A program made the translations under genes and the position numbers. DNA of 64,000 nt, from NCBI GenBank assembly GCA_945787955.1, contig CALZKF010000004.1, forward strand, positions 500-64,499. Reading direction: 5' to 3'. This document shows positions 3,097 through 39,970 of the stretch, in pieces. The notes under the pieces are model-generated. The model had not been told where the DNA came from and searched no databases. It saw nothing but the letters and a program-made list of their open reading frames with translations. Numbering within the stretch: position 1 is the stretch's first letter; each line of letters starts with the position of its first letter. Source of the DNA: an uncultured Acidobacteriota bacterium (GTDB lineage Bacteria; Acidobacteriota; Polarisedimenticolia; Polarisedimenticolales; Polarisedimenticolaceae).

Positions 3097-5328
3097 TAAA
3101 AAGGTGGCAGATCTGTTCCCTTTTTCCGAGGGGGTTCGAGTGAGGTAAATCCACACCGGAGCGTCCACGGAGTAGAATACGAGCGCTGAGCCGGCAGCCG
3201 GGTCGGAATCCACGGCTCCCGATACGAAACCGACGGCGTACTGATCATCCACGGGATCCATGGGGAGGATGCCGCCGAGGGGAGGGGTCACCGGGTCGAG
3301 TTGTCCGACTTCAGTGTTGCGCAGCAGGTTTCCGGTGCGTACTCCCGCTCCCCGCCAGTCCATGGACGGATCACCGTACAGGTTGTAGTTGTAGAGATTC
3401 CTGTACTCATAATTCATTTCCCAGCCATAGTTGATGTGGCTGTAGAACTTCGACTCGTACAGCGCCGCACCCAGGGTCCTGAGACCTCCAGGCGCCGCGA
3501 TAAGATAGCGGTTGAACTCGTAACACAGTGACTCGGCACCGCCGGGCTGTGCCGGCCAGTCACTGGTGACGGCTGCGTACCGGGACGAACTCACGATACC
3601 TGCGGCGGCGCCGGCCCCTGGATCGGAAAGAAGATGGATCCCCAGGTTTCCGTATGCATTCGGTTCGGGGTAGCCGACATTACAGGAGACGGCGCAGACA
3701 ATCGATTGATAGTCGTCATCGAAGATCGGATAGTCGGAGATGAACGGATCGCTCCAGAAGGAGTCCGAACCGTCGGTTTCAGGCACACCGTCGCCGTCGT
3801 CCGCCGACCAGACCGTTCTGGCGACGGAATCCGGCCAGCCGTGCCCGGACCAGTTGACGATCCCGTAGGCGCCGTTTCTCCAGTCCGTGATGAAAGCGGT
3901 CAGGGAGATCTGAGGCCACGGACAAACAGAGGCGACAAGACCCTCCTGTTCGCTGTATCGGCTCATGGTCCAGCCCTGCATGAAGTTCTGCTCGATTTCG
4001 TCGACACAGACGGCGCCGTCCCGGAACGGAATCCCGCTGTAGTCCTGGTTTTCATAGAACAGCACCGCTCCTGCGTGGAGGGCGCTTCTCTTCCAGTCTC
4101 CGGTATCCTGTTCGTACCGCACCATCTTGTTCAGGCTGTAGGTCACCTGGGAAGCGATGCTGGTGGGGACGCGGCCGACGTTGACCTCGGCCAGGAAGTC
4201 CGGCATATCCTGGCCGTATTCCCCGTAGAACCCGTCACCATCCAAGTCCCAGGAATCCGCATCGGCAAACGACAGGTCCGCGTAATACGCGTCGGTGGGA
4301 ACGGAGCCGGGGCCGGTGCCGGGGTCGGCCGGATTGTGCAGATGGTTGTAAGGATCCGGAAAGCAATAGCGCATCGGCACATCCAGGTAGTTCCCCACCA
4401 GCAGCACGTTTTCGATGCTCCATGCACCGTAGTAGGCCCGCAGGAAGTTACGGATGCGCGCCGCCAGGTCGACACCGCTCTGACCGGATACTTCGGCATC
4501 GGTGGTCAGAACGGTCCGGACGTTGTAGCCGAGGGACGTTTTCCAGCTCACGAAGTCGGAGGCCGCAACCGCCTCTGCGAGGCCGGACGTAGTGATGACA
4601 ACGAAATCATGGACCGCGAAATCGGCTCCCGGGGCCGCCGCTTCCGGTTCGTATTGATCCTTCATTTCGCCGTAATTGACGAACAGACCGGCAGCCCTGT
4701 TATCGGCAACCGTATCCGCCAGGAGCTCCCTGGCGGTCTGTTCCCGGATGCTGCCTTTTGCGGGAGCCGAGTAGATCACCCGCAGCCGGACACCGTTCCG
4801 GTGATCCAGACGCCCCGATGCGGCGTGATAACTGAACGGACGGAAGGAGATTCTGGCGTAGGAAAACTTCCGCAGGCTGCCATGGCCGGTGATGCGAGCT
4901 GCCTCCGGCGGGTAGGCACCGTCATCGGCGTAGGCCGCAACCCTGGCTGCCTCCAACCGCTCCTTCTCTTTTTTTAATGCGCCGGACAGGGGCAGCAGCG
5001 AGGATGAGGGCACGATGGCGTATTTTCCAGGCAGCACTTCAGCGCCGATCTCTTCAATCTCCAGCGAGACGGCACGTGCTCCCGGAGGGAGGAGGACCAG
5101 CGCCTGAATCTCGGGCAGCAACGGCCGTCCCGGTTCCTTGAGGTAGTCGAAGCCCTCCATGACGAGCTGCTGTCCACCCGGTACATCGACCAGGTGGAAG
5201 GGCGCCGAGTCAAGGACGACCTCGATGGCGCCGGTTGTCCATTCATCCTGATCGCCGGGAGGGGTGAAAGCAAGAACGGCGGAGCAGGCAAGCAGAACCG
5301 GGAGAGTGAATACAAGGCTCGGACGCAT
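2494..5328 (-). CDS. Secreted gingipain-like cysteine peptidase, family C25. The ORF as drawn has no stop until 2494; the credible coding part is about 3100-5328.
   Basis: Signal peptide MRPSLVFTLPVLLACSAVLA, a C25 propeptide-like N-terminus, and a His/Cys dyad context (IVNWSGHGWPDS, SIVCAVSCNVGYPE). The last ~200 codons are antisense to the porin and not protein-like. Confidence 0.75.
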   Translation of the reverse strand: MRPSLVFTLPVLLACSAVLAFTPPGDQDEWTTGAIEVVLDSAPFHLVDVPGGQQLVMEGFDYLKEPGRPLLPEIQALVLLPPGARAVSLEIEEIGAEVLPGKYAIVPSSSLLPLSGALKKEKERLEAARVAAYADDGAYPPEAARITGHGSLRKFSYARISFRPFSYHAASGRLDHRNGVRLRVIYSAPAKGSIREQTARELLADTVADNRAAGLFVNYGEMKDQYEPEAAAPGADFAVHDFVVITTSGLAEAVAASDFVSWKTSLGYNVRTVLTTDAEVSGQSGVDLAARIRNFLRAYYGAWSIENVLLVGNYLDVPMRYCFPDPYNHLHNPADPGTGPGSVPTDAYYADLSFADADSWDLDGDGFYGEYGQDMPDFLAEVNVGRVPTSIASQVTYSLNKMVRYEQDTGDWKRSALHAGAVLFYENQDYSGIPFRDGAVCVDEIEQNFMQGWTMSRYSEQEGLVASVCPWPQISLTAFITDWRNGAYGIVNWSGHGWPDSVARTVWSADDGDGVPETDGSDSFWSDPFISDYPIFDDDYQSIVCAVSCNVGYPEPNAYGNLGIHLLSDPGAGAAAGIVSSSRYAAVTSDWPAQPGGAESLCYEFNRYLIAAPGGLRTLGAALYESKFYSHINYGWEMNYEYRNLYNYNLYGDPSMDWRGAGVRTGNLLRNTEVGQLDPVTPPLGGILPMDPVDDQYAVGFVSGAVDSDPAAGSALVFYSVDAPVWIYLTRTPSEKGNRSATFLSEAGGCHEPELGGIDAVTVGAVVGELDHAGVMFTELPGDHQVDLRAVVHAAEIGREIVVHAGQLQADDIGGDVQVGVFQTFTGSTQKLVGPTVKPVQGGERRGQAVHTIVAPQKLVADRHSHLPHTNTDEAVDILGVNFGHAILVVGLPGELCRIQQVHAFVQAGLTAEAQSQRLVGQARSVFHVDEIAVTGQCPDSELP

Positions 5329-35051: not shown

Positions 35052-36443
35052 TCATTCCAGGGCTTCCGGCAGCCTTGGAACGGTCTCCTCCGCTTCAGCC
35101 AGGGCGAAACCCAGAACCGCCATGGCGGCCACATTCTTCGCCAGAAGATCAGGGTCGACCTTGTCCAGCGTATCGGCCATGGAGTGGTGCCAGTCGAAGT
35201 AGTATGTCGTGTCCTGGCGCTGACCGATCTGGGGAACGCCGTAAGGTTTCAGCGGAGAAATGTCGGCGCCGCCGCCGCCGTCCCGGACAGCATCGGCTCC
35301 GATGACGGCAAGGGGCGCCGCCCATTCCGTGAGCAGTTCCACTGCGCCTGCACCGGCGCTGACACCGAACCCGAGGGGGGCTCCTGCGCCTGCGTCCGAC
35401 TCCAGTGCGGCGACGATGTTCCCCGTCTCCGCGGCGTGGGCCAGGGCGTAGGCCTTCCCTCCCCATAAACCGTTCTCCTCTCCGGTATAGAGGACCCCCC
35501 GCAGGGAGCGTCGCGGCGTCAGGCCTGCTGCACGGATGATCCGGAGGCTCTCCATCACCATGATGCATCCTGCACCGTCATCGATGGCCCCGGTGCCCAG
35601 ATCCCAGGAATCGAAGTGGCAGGCCAGGATGACCACCTGCTCCGGTTTCTCACGGCCCCGGATTTCCGCCACTACATTGGCCGATGCGGCCATCGGCAGG
35701 TTGCGGCAGCCGAGCTCGAAATGCAGCGTGACCTTTTCGCCTGCCGCCAGCAGACGCTGGATCAACTCGCTGTCTTCCGCCGAGATCGAGGCGGCTGGAA
35801 TTTTCGGAATACCGTCCTCGTACCGCATCATGCCGGTGTGTGGCAGGCGGTAAGCTGCGGTTCCGAGGGAACGGTTCATGGCGGCCACCGCCCCCAGCTT
35901 CGCCGCCTCGGTGGCGCCGGTGACCCGGTAGGTTGCCGCCGAGCCGTATCCCGCCTCCCGGCCGCCGTTCCGGACGATCGGCCGGGTGTACAGGACGATT
36001 TTGCCCCGGACCTCTTCGCCCAGCAGCTTCAACTCGTCGTAGTTGTCCACCGCCACAACCTCTGCCGTGATCCCCCCTTCCGGAGTCGAAATGCTGCCCC
36101 CCAGTGCGGTGATGACCACCGGGTGGACCGTCGGGGAAACCACCCGGGCTGTCTCTTTGCCTCGCACCCAGTGCGGGACCGCGACCGGTTCGGTGTGGAC
36201 GTTTTCCTGGCCGTCGTTGCGAAACTCCTCCGTCGCCCACTCGATCGCCTTTTCCAGGTTGGCGGAACCTGTGATCCTGGGACCGATTCGGTCGGTGAGC
36301 CAGGCCAGCCGGTGGTAGGCGTGATGATCGGCCAGAGCGGCTTCCAGGATGCGTTCTGCGGCGGTCCTGTCCCGATCGTTCCCGAGGGCGGTCGCCGGCG
36401 GCATGGCCAGCAACGCGGCCAGGAGTACGATTATTGCTTGCAT
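35052..36443 (-). CDS. M28-family aminopeptidase with PA domain, secreted
   Basis: Signal peptide MQAIIVLLAALLAMPPATA. Zn ligand contexts HFDSWDLGTGAIDDGAG, TGEENGLWG and DWHHSMAD. GGGAGG SD is present. Confidence 0.85.
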   Translation of the reverse strand: MQAIIVLLAALLAMPPATALGNDRDRTAAERILEAALADHHAYHRLAWLTDRIGPRITGSANLEKAIEWATEEFRNDGQENVHTEPVAVPHWVRGKETARVVSPTVHPVVITALGGSISTPEGGITAEVVAVDNYDELKLLGEEVRGKIVLYTRPIVRNGGREAGYGSAATYRVTGATEAAKLGAVAAMNRSLGTAAYRLPHTGMMRYEDGIPKIPAASISAEDSELIQRLLAAGEKVTLHFELGCRNLPMAASANVVAEIRGREKPEQVVILACHFDSWDLGTGAIDDGAGCIMVMESLRIIRAAGLTPRRSLRGVLYTGEENGLWGGKAYALAHAAETGNIVAALESDAGAGAPLGFGVSAGAGAVELLTEWAAPLAVIGADAVRDGGGGADISPLKPYGVPQIGQRQDTTYYFDWHHSMADTLDKVDPDLLAKNVAAMAVLGFALAEAEETVPRLPEALE

Positions 36444-36509
36444 GAGTCCTCCCGTGTGCGACAGATCATTATGCCATGCAAGAATGTATGGCCAGAACAG
36501 GAGGCCCCG

Positions 36510-37742
36510 ATGATTCTGAAGCCGTTTCGTGGCTGGCGCCCGGCGGAGGAGCTGTCCTCCAGGATTCCCAGTTACCCGTATGACGTAGTCGGGCCGGACG
36601 AGGCCCGTGAGGCGGTACGGGATAATCCGTATTCCTTCCTGCATGTGGTCCGGCCTGAAATCGATCTCCCGGAAGGGGTCTCACCCTACGACGATCAGGT
36701 CTACGCCATGGCCGGTGTGAATCTCCGCGGGATGCAGGACCGGGGGTGGCTTGTCCAGGATGAAGCGCCGTCGTTCTACATCTATCGCATGACCATGGGA
36801 GCGCATGTCCAGACCGGGCTGGTCGGGGCGGCGTCGGTGGCGGAATACGACGACGGCAGGATAAGGAAGCACGAACACACCCTGCCGAAGAAGGAGGATG
36901 ACCGGGTCCGCCACATGGAGGCGTTATCGGCCCAGGTCGGGCCGGTGCTGGTCGCTTACCCGGATAATCCTGAAATGGATCACCTGGTCAATGAGATCAC
37001 CGCCGGCGCGCCGGCAACCGACTTCGTAGCTTCGGACGGTATCCGGCACCAGCTCTGGCATGTGGATGACGGCTCCCTGGTTGACCGGATCGAAAAACTG
37101 TATGCCTGCGTGCCCGGCAGCTACATCGCCGATGGCCATCACCGGGCCGCCGCTTCGTCCAGGGTTGCCGCGGCGCGGCGCGAACTGGGCGAGGGACCGG
37201 AGTCTGCTTCACAGTATTTTTTGACCATCCAGTTTCCGGCAGGACGGATGCAGGTTCTGGAGTACAACCGGCTGGTGCGGGATCTGGGCGGCCTGGACGC
37301 AGGCGGTTTTCGCCGCAGGGTCGTGGAGGCCGGGTTCTCGCTGAAACGCTCCGAGGCCGGCAGGAAGCCACCCGGGCGGGGCTGCTTCGGCTTGATTCTG
37401 GAAGGGGTGTGGTATCTGCTGCAGGCATCGCCGGACATGGTCAACGGGACCGGCCCGGTGGATCTGCTGGACGTTTCCATCCTCACCGAGCACCTTCTCA
37501 AACCGGTGCTGGGGATCGGGGATCCCCGATCGGACCCCCGGCTGGAGTGCGTCGGCGGCATACGGGGAGCGGATTATTTGGAACGCCAGGTGAGTACTGG
37601 CCGGTTCGCCGCCGGGTTCGTGCTGTACCCCACCAGTATTCAGGAGGTCATGGCCGTCGCCGACGCCGGGGAGGTCATGCCGCCTAAAAGCACATGGTTC
37701 GAGCCGAAAGCCCGTTCAGGCATGGTATTCCGCGAAATTTAA
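36510..37742 (+). CDS. DUF1015 family protein
   Basis: MILKPFRGWRP..., YPYDVV, IRKHEHTLPKKEDDR and ADGHHR motifs. AGGAGG SD is present. The track ORF is extended ~900 nt upstream into the antisense of the M28 gene. Confidence 0.85.
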   Translation: MILKPFRGWRPAEELSSRIPSYPYDVVGPDEAREAVRDNPYSFLHVVRPEIDLPEGVSPYDDQVYAMAGVNLRGMQDRGWLVQDEAPSFYIYRMTMGAHVQTGLVGAASVAEYDDGRIRKHEHTLPKKEDDRVRHMEALSAQVGPVLVAYPDNPEMDHLVNEITAGAPATDFVASDGIRHQLWHVDDGSLVDRIEKLYACVPGSYIADGHHRAAASSRVAAARRELGEGPESASQYFLTIQFPAGRMQVLEYNRLVRDLGGLDAGGFRRRVVEAGFSLKRSEAGRKPPGRGCFGLILEGVWYLLQASPDMVNGTGPVDLLDVSILTEHLLKPVLGIGDPRSDPRLECVGGIRGADYLERQVSTGRFAAGFVLYPTSIQEVMAVADAGEVMPPKSTWFEPKARSGMVFREI

Positions 37743-38054
37743 TTTCGGGGACAGGCACCTTAACCCGGGTTTCGGGGACACCCTTCCAGCAGCCAAGAGC
37801 AAGACTTCTGAGCTGAGGAGGCAGGTCTCAACCTCCACGCTTGCCTGATCTCCTGTCTTATCACTAGCCGTCGTGGGATGTCGATTTGGAATAACCCTTC
37901 CTGACGGGATATACCAAATCGACATCCTCCGACGGCCGTTCAAGGGCGCTGCAATCGAAGAGCAGGCTGTGCCTTCATGCGAACAGTCGTATGGGCTGAC
38001 TGCGATTATCGATGGGTGTCCCCGAAACCCGGGTTAAGGTGCCTGTCCCCGAAA
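37743..38054. repeat. 312-bp element bounded by perfect 41-bp inverted repeats, with a nested internal hairpin (MITE/REP-like element or structured RNA)
   Basis: 37743-37783 is the exact reverse complement of 38014-38054. An inner hairpin pairs 37867-37889 with 37914-37936 (21/23). No credible ORF lies inside, and the element abuts both flanking stop codons. Confidence 0.8.
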
Positions 38055-38822
38055 CTAGAGAAGCATATGGCGGAGCTTGTTCCGGATGACGGTGTGCAGA
38101 TTCGGTCTCCGGTTGAGCAGCCTGAGCGCGGGCAGAGGAAGCAGTTGCACCATCTGCTCGGCAAGCGGAAGAGGCGTCCGGACATGACAGATAATTTCCA
38201 GCAACACATCCGGTTTGTCCTTCCAGCGCTGGCTGGCGGCGATCTGTTCGAGAGTCCGAGACATCAGGTGGATGTTGTCGAGAAGAGCAAGAAGCTCCGA
38301 TTCCCGCAGATGTGGATTCCTAGCAAGCGAATCGAGAACCAGGGGATGTACTTCGTGAAGGAGAATTTCTCGCTCCGATGAGCTGAGAGATCGTATGGCT
38401 ATGGTGGTCCGCAGAGGCACCGGGATCAATCCGAGGGCGTTCCGGATCTCTCTTGCCGGGGAGCCCGGATTAATGTGGGATAACGGTCCAGGCGGGTTCC
38501 TCTCTATCAGACGCTGTAAAATTGATTCCAGACGGAGCCGTTCCTCCTGAGTGATCGAGTCGAACTCCAGCGCCAGGGCAGTGCTGGAATTGTCCTCATG
38601 CTCGGACACTCGAGCGACCCGACCGGACAATTCCGCCTGCAGGTCACCGCTGGGTGCTTCCAGCCGGAAGCTCACCGTTTCGTCCGCCGGCCAGGGGATC
38701 CCCCCTACAAGCATCACGCCGGTGCGGCTGAGATCGTTGGCCGTACACGGGTAATCCCGGCCACGGTAATGCACCACCGCCGGGATACCGGCCTTGAATC
38801 TGACTTTTCGGTCAGGTGCCAT
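38055..38822 (-). CDS. PilZ-domain protein with helical-repeat C-terminal domain
   Basis: N-terminal DRKVRFK ... NDLSRTG (RxxxR-like and DxSxxG PilZ motifs). The C-terminal half is leucine-rich helical repeats. Confidence 0.7.
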   Translation of the reverse strand: MAPDRKVRFKAGIPAVVHYRGRDYPCTANDLSRTGVMLVGGIPWPADETVSFRLEAPSGDLQAELSGRVARVSEHEDNSSTALALEFDSITQEERLRLESILQRLIERNPPGPLSHINPGSPAREIRNALGLIPVPLRTTIAIRSLSSSEREILLHEVHPLVLDSLARNPHLRESELLALLDNIHLMSRTLEQIAASQRWKDKPDVLLEIICHVRTPLPLAEQMVQLLPLPALRLLNRRPNLHTVIRNKLRHMLL

Positions 38823-38935
38823 GGTTTTGTCCAGCTCCCTGAATATCCTACCTGAAATCGGGCTCCGAGAAAGTAGACCAACGCGGGTTCCTATCCTATT
38901 TTGATTATGGTGGTTATGGGTGTATTTTCGCGAGC

Positions 38936-39970
38936 ATGAATTTCCAGATCGACATCGACCAGAACATTCTCAAGATGGTGGCCCACCTGGATCATTTCCG
39001 GGGGGTCTGGTCCGGGGGGGCAGGCATCCCCGCCACCCGGCGTGCCCGGCTCCGTGAGGAGGCCACGGTTCTGTCCACTTTAACCGCCTGCACTATGGGC
39101 GGGGTTGCCGTGACCGAGGAGGAAATTCGAAATGCCGGGGCCGACGGAGTTGTTGCATCACCGAAGCACCAGCAGGTCGTGGGGTTCCTCACAGCTCTGA
39201 AACGGGCCCATAGTGATAACGCCGCCATGGTGACCACCCGGACACTGCGGGATTACCACGCCATTATCCTGGGCTGTCCTGACAATGCTTTCATGCCCTC
39301 GGACTGGCGGACAACGCCGTACGACCGGGAAGCGTTTGATTCCGACGGCAACGCCCTGGGACGGGTGTTCACCACCCTGCCACCGCACGCCGTGCCTGAC
39401 TCCATGGAAGATCTGGTGACCTGGCTCGAGCTGGAACTCCACGGTAGAGAGAACCATCCGCTCCTGGTGATCGGCGCCGTTTCACTGGCCATGACCGCCG
39501 CCAGCCCGTTCAGCAAAGGCAACGGCCGCCTGGTCTGGGTCATGATCGCCCGGCTCATGGAGCGGGCAGGTTATGCCTACGTGCCGTACGCCAGGCTGCT
39601 CACCGGAGAGCTGCGGGAGCGAACCGCGTACTACGATGCCCTGGACCGTTCCCAGAACCGGATCTGGAGTGGCGATGCCGACCTGCGCCCCTGGCTGACG
39701 TTCTTCCTGGAGACCCTGGTCGGGCATGCCGATCGAGTACGGGCAATCGCCGAGGTGGAGCACGATTCCACTTCGTACTCGCCGCTGCAGCGTAAGATCG
39801 TCGAAATCGTCAAGAAACACGGCAGCGCGGAAGCCGGTCTGTTGATGCGGACCACCGGCGCCAACCGCAACACCCTGAAGGACAACCTTCGCCGCCTGGT
39901 GGACCGGGGCAACCTGGAACGGCTGGGGAAACGCCGGGGCACCCGGTACCGTATACCAACCGACCTGTAA
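38936..39970 (+). CDS. Fic/DOC family protein with degenerate Fic motif and C-terminal winged-helix domain
   Basis: The layout is Fic_N-like N-terminus, core helix bundle, then wHTH (RNTLKDNLRRLVDRGNLERLGKRRGTRY). The motif position reads SPFSKGNGRLVW instead of HPFx(D/E)GNGRxxR. Confidence 0.75.
   Translation: MNFQIDIDQNILKMVAHLDHFRGVWSGGAGIPATRRARLREEATVLSTLTACTMGGVAVTEEEIRNAGADGVVASPKHQQVVGFLTALKRAHSDNAAMVTTRTLRDYHAIILGCPDNAFMPSDWRTTPYDREAFDSDGNALGRVFTTLPPHAVPDSMEDLVTWLELELHGRENHPLLVIGAVSLAMTAASPFSKGNGRLVWVMIARLMERAGYAYVPYARLLTGELRERTAYYDALDRSQNRIWSGDADLRPWLTFFLETLVGHADRVRAIAEVEHDSTSYSPLQRKIVEIVKKHGSAEAGLLMRTTGANRNTLKDNLRRLVDRGNLERLGKRRGTRYRIPTDL

Follow-up and report, generated by a model that had tools for sequence, protein, structure and literature searches.

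The TIRYT genes lie between terminal inverted repeats (TIRs) that are long and share the sequence GGGGWSAS, and these repeats are found singly, as dimers, or in clusters (Di Nocera et al. 2013, PMC3733652). The TIRYT enzymes were later equated with subclass 2.1 of TnpA-Y1, which is characterized by the HuH motif NHVH, the Y motif YIELNP, a median length of about 238 aa, and a C-terminal extension, and which was described as having no accompanying repetitive extragenic palindrome (REP)-like sequences (Quentin et al. 2018, PMC6006769). The same proteins are the Group 1 REP-associated tyrosine transposases (RAYTs), the largest group, in which the 16-mers at the flanks show only moderate repetition (Bertels et al. 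2017, PMC5581495). In the literature searched, the name TIRYT was used only in two surveys, and these report no activity, no target, and no evidence of repeat movement (PMC3733652; PMC6006769). Here, we describe a 312-bp element in a 64,000-nt stretch of DNA (the window) from an uncultured Acidobacteriota bacterium of the Polarisedimenticolaceae (contig CALZKF010000004.1). The element is wedged exactly between the convergent stop codons of a DUF1015 gene and a PilZ-domain gene and is very probably a nonautonomous inverted doublet of RAYT-like Y1/HUH (TIRYT) terminal repeats with a 230-bp structured, noncoding interior. It is a further example of a known and barely studied repeat class, unusual in the length and structure of its interior.

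The locus resembles the published TIRYT systems in both enzyme and repeats. The arms of the element also flank Y1/HUH genes of 222 and 241 aa, compared to about 220-240 aa for the TIRYT enzymes, with the motifs NHVH and YIELNP. The repeats are long, nonpalindromic, and inverted, contain GGGGWSAS (here GGGGACAG and GGGGACAC), and are dispersed as singles and dimers. In contrast, the published accounts list repeat families only, without empty sites, a long structured dimer, or a TA(G)/stop-codon flank, and the surveys did not cover the host class Polarisedimenticolia. Judged by its sequence, the element is both REPIN-like and similar to a miniature inverted-repeat transposable element (MITE), and its class would be TIRYT, which corresponds to TnpA-Y1 subclass 2.1 and to Group 1 of Bertels et al.

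Three other described systems share part of this architecture. In REPINs, two inverted transposase-flanking repeats and their spacer fold as one long hairpin (Bertels and Rainey 2011, PMC3116915; PMC3337134). REPINs are also nonautonomous, vertically inherited, and long-lived, and their repeats evolve alongside a Y1 gene that is present in one copy and has these units on its flanks. However, the classical REP is a short palindrome with a GTAG or GTGG foot, whereas the arms described here are nonpalindromic and have no GT[AG]G foot. The spacer is also 230 bp long and structured, while most doublets of the window family total 48-180 bp, and REPINs reach tens to hundreds of copies per genome, compared to the at least three arm-bearing loci reached here. 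The IS200/IS605 elements IS608 and ISDra2 and the E. coli TnpA-REP share the predicted catalytic fold (4er8, 2a6m, and 2vjv), the absence of a target duplication, and insertion beside a short specific flank. Their ends are asymmetric with subterminal hairpins and no TIRs, whereas the present ends are symmetric 41-bp repeats with paired boxes, and the enzyme of the window family has an extra C-terminal helical region (helices 185-224). Finally, the bacterial MITEs Correia/NEMIS, ERIC, and RUP are small, noncoding, bounded by inverted repeats, and located right after coding regions, and they could form a very stable hairpin in the transcripts of their neighbors, as would be the case for both neighbors here (PMC3733652). 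Unlike the window element, they depend on DDE transposases and have target duplications.

Arms, family members, and flanks

The two arms are exact reverse complements (41/41), a match with no occurrence in 100 shuffles of the window, and their complementarity extends imperfectly to 47 nt (96%; TA-A...C-TA). Each arm carries TTTCGGGGACA twice, 27 nt apart, surrounding AACCCGGGTT, and the GGGGACA boxes of each arm read GGGGACAG and GGGGACAC, in agreement with the consensus GGGGWSAS. A first-pass annotation, made from the letters of the window alone, had described the perfect arms, the repeated box around a core, and the contact of the arms with both stop codons, and it was correct on all three. 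The same structure is present on a second contig record (L115; retrieved loci carry L numbers) of the same assembly, and homologous copies were found at the same site in independent metagenomes (L119, L125/L127, and L126), which rules out an assembly artifact. There is one copy of the element within the window. It has the MITE-type traits of terminal inverted repeats, small size, and no coding capacity, and no Y1 transposase gene was found inside the window by tblastn. The first-pass annotation had also seen no transposase there; the cognate one lies outside the window in the same genome.

The wider family was surveyed by a motif scan for two TTTCGGGGACA boxes 12-20 nt apart, using one genome per species. 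At least 114 loci in many phyla were found, and the two-box motif is multi-copy within single metagenome-assembled genomes (MAGs). In the sister genome Ca. Polarisedimenticolaceae MFD03804.bin.3.322, where the arm-bearing loci are L033, L060, and L107, arms identical to those of the window form perfect-hairpin doublets of 113 and 114 bp (L107 and L060), and the window 41-mer makes up both arms of the 113-bp doublet (L107, 3027-3139). Single arms also occur, for example L087, which lies directly after a stop codon. Across all fetched loci, the noncoding doublets are mostly 48-180 bp in size, four are 275-312 bp, of which that of the window is the longest, and the transposase-bearing units are 807-1148 bp. 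Two more long elements of the L119 type (L079 and L068) were found in the P. svalbardensis MAG AM4, with different flanks and 90-95% identity to L119. Since these copies are at other sites, the 310-320-bp unit moves or has moved as a whole. A metagenome scan with the conserved interior block returned one true locus (L121, which is the same as L127) and a chance match in rpsC (L122), suggesting that the long form is rare in the JGI data. In a search of the literature, the 10-mer TTTCGGGGAC and its reverse complement turned up only in primers and sequences of no relation. In other phyla, the box was seen in head-to-tail arrays of at least four units with periods of 15-27 nt instead of arms with two units (L027, 2745-2855; L009, 1415-1520; L063, 7840-7896; L008, 57-140).

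The flanks of the family members point to a preferred target. Of 35 family arms, 7 have TAG immediately beyond the TTTCGGGG terminus (background, 0.32% per position), and TA lies at most 3 nt from the terminus in 17 of the 35 (background, 1.4% per position); these counts include orthologous, non-independent arms, and P values are thus indicative only. The preferred flank is probably TA(G), often as CTAG, which occurs once per 4.3 kb in these genomes. Because CTAG is very rare in a genome of 62% G+C except as a stop, this preference would explain why family ends often touch or supply stop codons. It would also explain the position of the element exactly between two stops, together with the ancestral gap of about 1 nt, as only an insertion in that gap spares both genes.

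In about seven other cases, a long open reading frame (ORF) enters an arm and ends at the arm's internal TAA. Arms donate the last codons and the stop at L107 (3027-3047), L060 (4078-4097), L033 (around 6340, minus strand), and L130 (1157-1176). This accounts for an arrangement that annotation of high-G+C genomes may run up against, namely repeats that touch stop codons or donate a stop and a few C-terminal residues. A TrmH-family methyltransferase ends in ...LYERFRGQAP in several species and in ...RFRNSGTGT in the source genome, each followed by the stop. A more distant TrmH orthologue ends in ...RFRDYFPL before its stop, and the native sequence there (GGTTTCGGGAC) resembles the arm terminus.

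A Y1 transposase gene between the same arms

The cognate enzyme was assigned on the basis of the same arms flanking a Y1 gene elsewhere in the same genome. This 241-aa Y1_Tnp gene (P0121) is located between convergent arms on contig CALZJK010000025.1 of GCA_945787205.1 (locus L128; arms at 2890-2927 and 3746-3786), with its right arm matching that of the window at 41 of 41 positions. The window site is also on this assembly (the L115 record), on a contig other than that of P0121. In the sister genome, the same arms bracket a 222-aa ORF (L033), whose closest relative is P0121 (83% identity) and which matches Pfam Y1_Tnp (2.4e-16) and, at 77.3 bits and thus slightly below the cut-off of 80, the NCBIfam model REP_Tyr_transpos. 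The motifs LMPNHVHLL and RYIELNP were read directly in L033 and L128, and their residues are invariant in alignment A3. By these motifs and by length, both enzymes fit subclass 2.1. A sequence search of the PDB with the transposase gave no informative match (E-value of about 0.5). The AlphaFold model of P0121 (predicted local distance difference test score of 87.6) was closest in a fold search to 4er8, the E. coli RAYT bound to REP (E 2.9e-09), followed by TnpA of IS608 and ISDra2, and it contains the C-terminal helices at 185-224.

The transposase unit consists of a Y1_Tnp gene with convergent arms of 38-41 bp on either side; it is present in one copy, and its synteny is kept across species (L128, L033, and L129). 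L129 is an orthologous unit, in the syntenic place, in a genome in which the DUF1015-PilZ site is empty, and therefore the transposase is older than this insertion. Homologues with 33-52% identity, flanked by convergent TTTCGGGGACA arrays, are found in Acidobacteriota, Desulfobacterota, Bacillota, and Alpha- and Gammaproteobacteria. Between the left arm and the transposase start codon, there is a short G+C-rich hairpin (L128, 2960-3000, GTTGCCGCCCGGCAAC; L033, 5530-5575, GCAACTCGCAAGCGGTTGC) that could be a subterminal or regulatory structure. Beside the unit, 1.55 kb is inverted between L128 (3784-5340) and L033 (6361-7901), with one breakpoint exactly at the outer end of the right arm and the other without an arm remnant.

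From the architecture of the arms and the enzyme, the transposase would bind the paired GGGGACA[G/C] boxes, possibly through the extra C-terminal helices. By analogy with IS608, ISDra2, and the E. coli TnpA-REP, it would then cut and rejoin single-stranded DNA at the outer ends, beside the short flank. Such a single-strand reaction would explain the absence of a target duplication.

Another possible explanation is that the element is a classical cut-and-paste MITE whose TA-duplicating transposase is of the DDE type (IS630/Tc1-like or IS5-like), with the Y1 gene merely lying inside another copy. It would account for the long perfect TIRs, for single arms that are not hairpins, and for the TA found at most 3 nt from 17 of the 35 arm termini. 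TA is present at both ends of the window element (TA-A-TTTCGG...CCGAAA-C-TA) and of the P0121 unit, which lies between two convergent gene ends with the flanks AACTAG/TTTCGG...CCGAAA/CTATTC. However, removal of the element and one TA does not restore the empty alleles described below (L116, ATTTGAACTAGCG; L117, a 19-nt spacer). The coding units between these arms, from several phyla, contain a Y1_Tnp gene only, with no DDE gene seen, and GGGGWSAS repeats are assigned to Y1 enzymes in the literature. We consider a DDE-dependent origin very unlikely.

Empty, filled, and collapsed alleles of the site

Relatives carrying the same site were found through the DUF1015 protein. The site is empty in L116 (bin Acidobacteriota_JACXWD01; 80% DUF1015 identity), where the stops are 1 nt apart (...GAGATT TGA A CTA GCG...), and in L117 (75% identity), where they are 19 nt apart. 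It is filled by a homologous element of 319 bp in L119 (77% identity) and of 310 bp in L125/L127 and L126 (78% identity). In L123 (83% identity), the element has collapsed to a 48-bp hairpin made from the outer halves of the arms. The C-terminus of DUF1015 (...REI and the stop) is of equal length in the empty-site relatives, which use TGA, and the PilZ stop is at the same codon position in L116 and L117. Since these positions are the same in empty and filled alleles, both stop codons predate the insertion. A neighbor-joining tree of DUF1015 groups the filled sites in a single clade, outside of which the empty sites branch, and this argues for a single ancestral insertion followed by vertical descent. 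As far as comparison of these sequences goes, the alleles show that an ancestor acquired the element in a 1-nt gap between the convergent DUF1015 and PilZ stops and that it was then inherited vertically.

No target-site duplication was found when the empty alleles were compared with the filled site, as the first-pass annotation had stated, and the simplest reading of the alleles would be TAA-A-(element)-CTAG versus TGA-A-CTAG. The same annotation had offered a nonautonomous MITE/REP-like element among several interpretations, and this one is supported by the homologues, the empty site in a relative, and a cognate RAYT-type transposase with the same arms. The TrmH site (L107, L130, and L131) was considered as a second pair of empty and filled alleles. 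It is filled in most relatives, and it was rejected since its single empty allele, with 65% identity and a different synteny on the right, has diverged too far for the junction to be placed. Collapse to a 47-48-bp hairpin consisting of only the outer arm halves was seen at two independent sites (L123, 1264-1320; L130, 1160-1206), and L123 has a 9-nt tandem duplication, CCGAAACTA, at its right junction.

The empty alleles also bear on whether two single arms inserted independently around an older spacer, or whether a stand-alone structured noncoding RNA, as the first-pass annotation had suggested, became bracketed by repeats. Single arms do exist, as in L087 right after a stop codon, and the interior contains conserved stem-loops. 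However, with 1 or 19 nt between the genes in the empty alleles, there was no older 230-bp spacer, and at other loci (L079 and L068) the interior is again accompanied by the arms. The only match to Rfam, searched over 36500-39500 in E-value mode, was a miRNA-like one to mir-5360 that is due to chance (E 0.03; 25.5 bits versus a gathering score of 79). Both versions of this explanation are highly unlikely.

The arms and the interior have changed at different rates. The interior of the window element shares 53% identity with that of L119, compared to 55.7% for DUF1015 third codon positions, while the arms stay at 83-90% identity (83-88% for the same pair). The interior has thus drifted at about the neutral rate, except for its hairpins and one 22-nt block, the 22-mer CAAGGGCGCTGCAATCGAAGAG, which is identical in the window, L119, L125/127, L126, and L068 and has one mismatch in L079. 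The arm types match within each copy and differ by lineage (GGCACCTTAACCCGGG in the window, GCAACCGAAACCCGGG in L119, and GGCACATAACTCGGG in L125), and the window type is that of the transposase unit of its own genome. The arms are therefore constrained and evolve in concert. They may be kept perfect by transposase recognition, by selection for the hairpin, or by conversion between arms, three causes that the data cannot separate. Three contigs encode an identical DUF1015 protein (P0005) and are followed after its stop by an arm of the GCAACCGAAACCCGGG type in L118 (4946-4976) and L119 (3239-3280) and of the GGCACCTTAACCCGGG type in L120 (3496-3524). L118 and L120 end within the arm, and this difference may therefore be strain variation or an assembly crossing between repeat copies.

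Several points weigh against a TIRYT doublet moved by a single-strand mechanism. The first-pass annotation had proposed that each arm can fold locally, yet single arms fold no better than shuffles (z of +0.4 to +0.7), and the idea that the arms are REP hairpins was rejected for this reason. As single arms are not hairpins, unlike characterized Y1 substrates, the single-strand model may need folding of the whole doublet or may be wrong. The source genome yielded at least three arm-bearing loci through protein look-ups (the window doublet, L128, and the collapsed doublet L130), and no long-form paralogue was seen among them. The TA at either end, seen for the window element as well as for the transposase unit, also fits a 2-bp TA duplication, and the evidence contrary to this comes from diverged empty alleles only. 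Lineage-specific long elements could also conceivably have reinserted independently into one hot spot. Furthermore, to our knowledge, transposition, cleavage, or binding has never been shown for a TIRYT enzyme, and the catalytic steps are proposed by analogy only.

The locus adds to the TIRYT class a series of alleles at one site (empty with 1 nt, full-length with 310-319 bp, and collapsed with 48 bp), a cognate transposase encoded by the genome itself, TA(G)/CTAG as a candidate target, and evidence that the arms, and not the interior, have been held constant over a long time. The system thereby becomes testable in vitro with the P0121 protein and arm oligonucleotides. Its practical importance is moderate, and the biology extends the REPIN/RAYT picture rather than adding a new principle.

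The folded interior and its possible roles

Folding of the complete element gives about -192 kcal/mol for either strand (z of about -15), and the 113-114-bp doublets L107 and L060 fold with z of -15 to -18. The nested inner hairpin that had been noted in the interior is real, with a DNA fold of -27.6 kcal/mol. Covariation was examined in alignment A2, which contains six distinct copies. Over all helices, 97.2% of cells pair, and 17 pairs have changed on both sides. Shuffles gave 4.6 +/- 1.8 such pairs, with none of 500 at 17, and controls with slid partners gave 0-6. In the arm helix, six pairs show a compensating two-sided change and none varies on one side; four further pairs depart by non-pairing cells only (five non-Watson-Crick mismatches and one A.C cell, near the termini). 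In the central hairpin, 11 of 33 pairs have changed on both sides, 97.9% of cells pair, and the four one-sided changes are all G.U on the plus strand. Counted by cell on this strand, nine G.U stand against one A.C. This number of G.U cells is low and, in the case of helices 3 and 4, biased by the structure-prediction procedure. The helices at A2 columns 214-255 pair in 98-100% of cells and have no two-sided changes.

The interior has no conserved coding function, since orthologous copies differ by frame-breaking indels of 1, 4, and 5 nt (alignment A2). Its ORFs, which the first-pass annotation had called artifactual, are not conserved. We also considered whether the interior is a remnant of a transposase unit and rejected this, as blastn matches to L033 and L128 beyond the arm repeats reach only about 13 nt inward of the right arm.

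A further suggestion of the first-pass annotation was an invertible DNA switch in which the 230-bp segment flips between the 41-bp repeats. The perfect inverted repeats would be a substrate for recombination, and the 1.55-kb inversion between L033 and L128 has a breakpoint exactly at the end of an arm. However, the interior has the same orientation relative to DUF1015 in the four diverged genomes of the window, L119, L125/127, and L126, no invertase or recombinase was seen in the neighborhood, and no promoter-like site was found within the element. An invertible switch is highly unlikely.

A role at the RNA level deserves more weight. From the position of the arms, the transcripts of both genes would contain a 41-bp stem from the stop codon onward. 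Such a stem would block 3' exonucleases and stabilize 3' ends, or offer a site for RNase III, and it may hinder the termination of translation. In E. coli, REP and bacterial interspersed mosaic element sequences reportedly affect mRNA decay, and also translation when near a stop codon, as Liang, Rudd, and Deutscher are said to have described in 2015. The element could thus have been domesticated as an insulator (a terminator, 3' stabilizer, or RNase III site) of convergent genes that have no spacer, with mobility explaining its origin only. This explanation partly overlaps with that of a TIRYT doublet. It is consistent with the empty allele, which leaves 1 nt and no terminator between the genes, with persistence of the element since before the split of species with 75-78% DUF1015 identity, and with the fold of the whole element on either strand. 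The covariation of the central hairpin, with its G.U changes on the plus strand, also fits, as does the 22-bp hairpin that even the collapsed copy L123 retains. Sister copies carry a stem and T-run at the apex of the central hairpin (L119, 3379-3398). However, no stem and T-run terminator was found in the window at 37500-38300, and the window copy is therefore not the canonical giant bidirectional terminator that had been proposed. In addition, most of the interior drifts at the neutral rate, conversion between arms yields compensatory changes in DNA repeats without selection on RNA, and the small G.U count is subject to the bias given above. Domestication of this kind is possible, and we hold it only tentatively.

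A bolder and more doubtful proposal is that long TIRYT doublets form a distinct, cargo-carrying subclass of mobile 3'-end cassettes. The Y1 enzyme would place them at (C)TAG, and the interior, with its covarying hairpin, terminator-like apex in most copies, and invariant 22-nt block, would be under selection for a function, at the level of RNA or single-strand DNA, in insulating convergent genes. The enzyme, by acting continually, would hold the arms perfect and identical to the arms of the transposase unit. If this is true, the site would document mobility in the largest and least understood RAYT group by a natural before-and-after comparison for the first time.

The coordinates of the element and of the two genes that it separates are given in Table 1. 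A 708-aa ORF at this locus is an over-extension upstream of the true DUF1015 gene.

Table 1. Positions of the element, its parts, and the adjoining genes in the window.
Feature	Position	Strand	Basis and remarks
Left terminal inverted repeat	37743-37783	+	Direct GGGGACA boxes TTTCGGGGACA at 37743-37753 and 37770-37780, around AACCCGGGTT
Right terminal inverted repeat	38014-38054	-	Exact reverse complement of left arm; outer end abuts CTAG
Noncoding interior (cargo), 230 bp	37784-38013	+	Alignments A1 and A2; blastn
Central long hairpin	37867-37936	+	Fold z = -8; compensatory changes; position conserved
Most conserved interior block and stem-loop	37941-37986	+	CAAGGGCGCTGCAATCGAAGAG at 37941-37962, plus stem-loop with 37977-37986; alignments A1 and A2
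DUF1015 gene	36510-37742	+	Pfam 8e-91; gene call in L115; stop TAA at 37740-37742 touches left arm
PilZ-domain gene	38055-38822	-	Pfam 7.2e-12; stop, CTA on the plus strand at 38055-38057, touches right arm

The gene order Response_reg, DUF1015, PilZ, Fic-like, FTCD is kept in the relatives L116 and L117, contrary to the suggestion that the PilZ and Fic genes are accessory. The Fic-like gene (window 38936-39970) has a marginal Pfam Fic match (24.9 bits versus a cut-off of 24). It is found at the same place and with the same length (344 aa) in L116 and L117, and thus it is neither decaying nor accessory. In the window (35052-36644, minus strand) and in L116 (3546-4934), the response-regulator gene and DUF1015 are separated by a Peptidase_M28 gene. 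L117-L120 do not have this gene, which is therefore a gene-sized indel in an otherwise conserved synteny.

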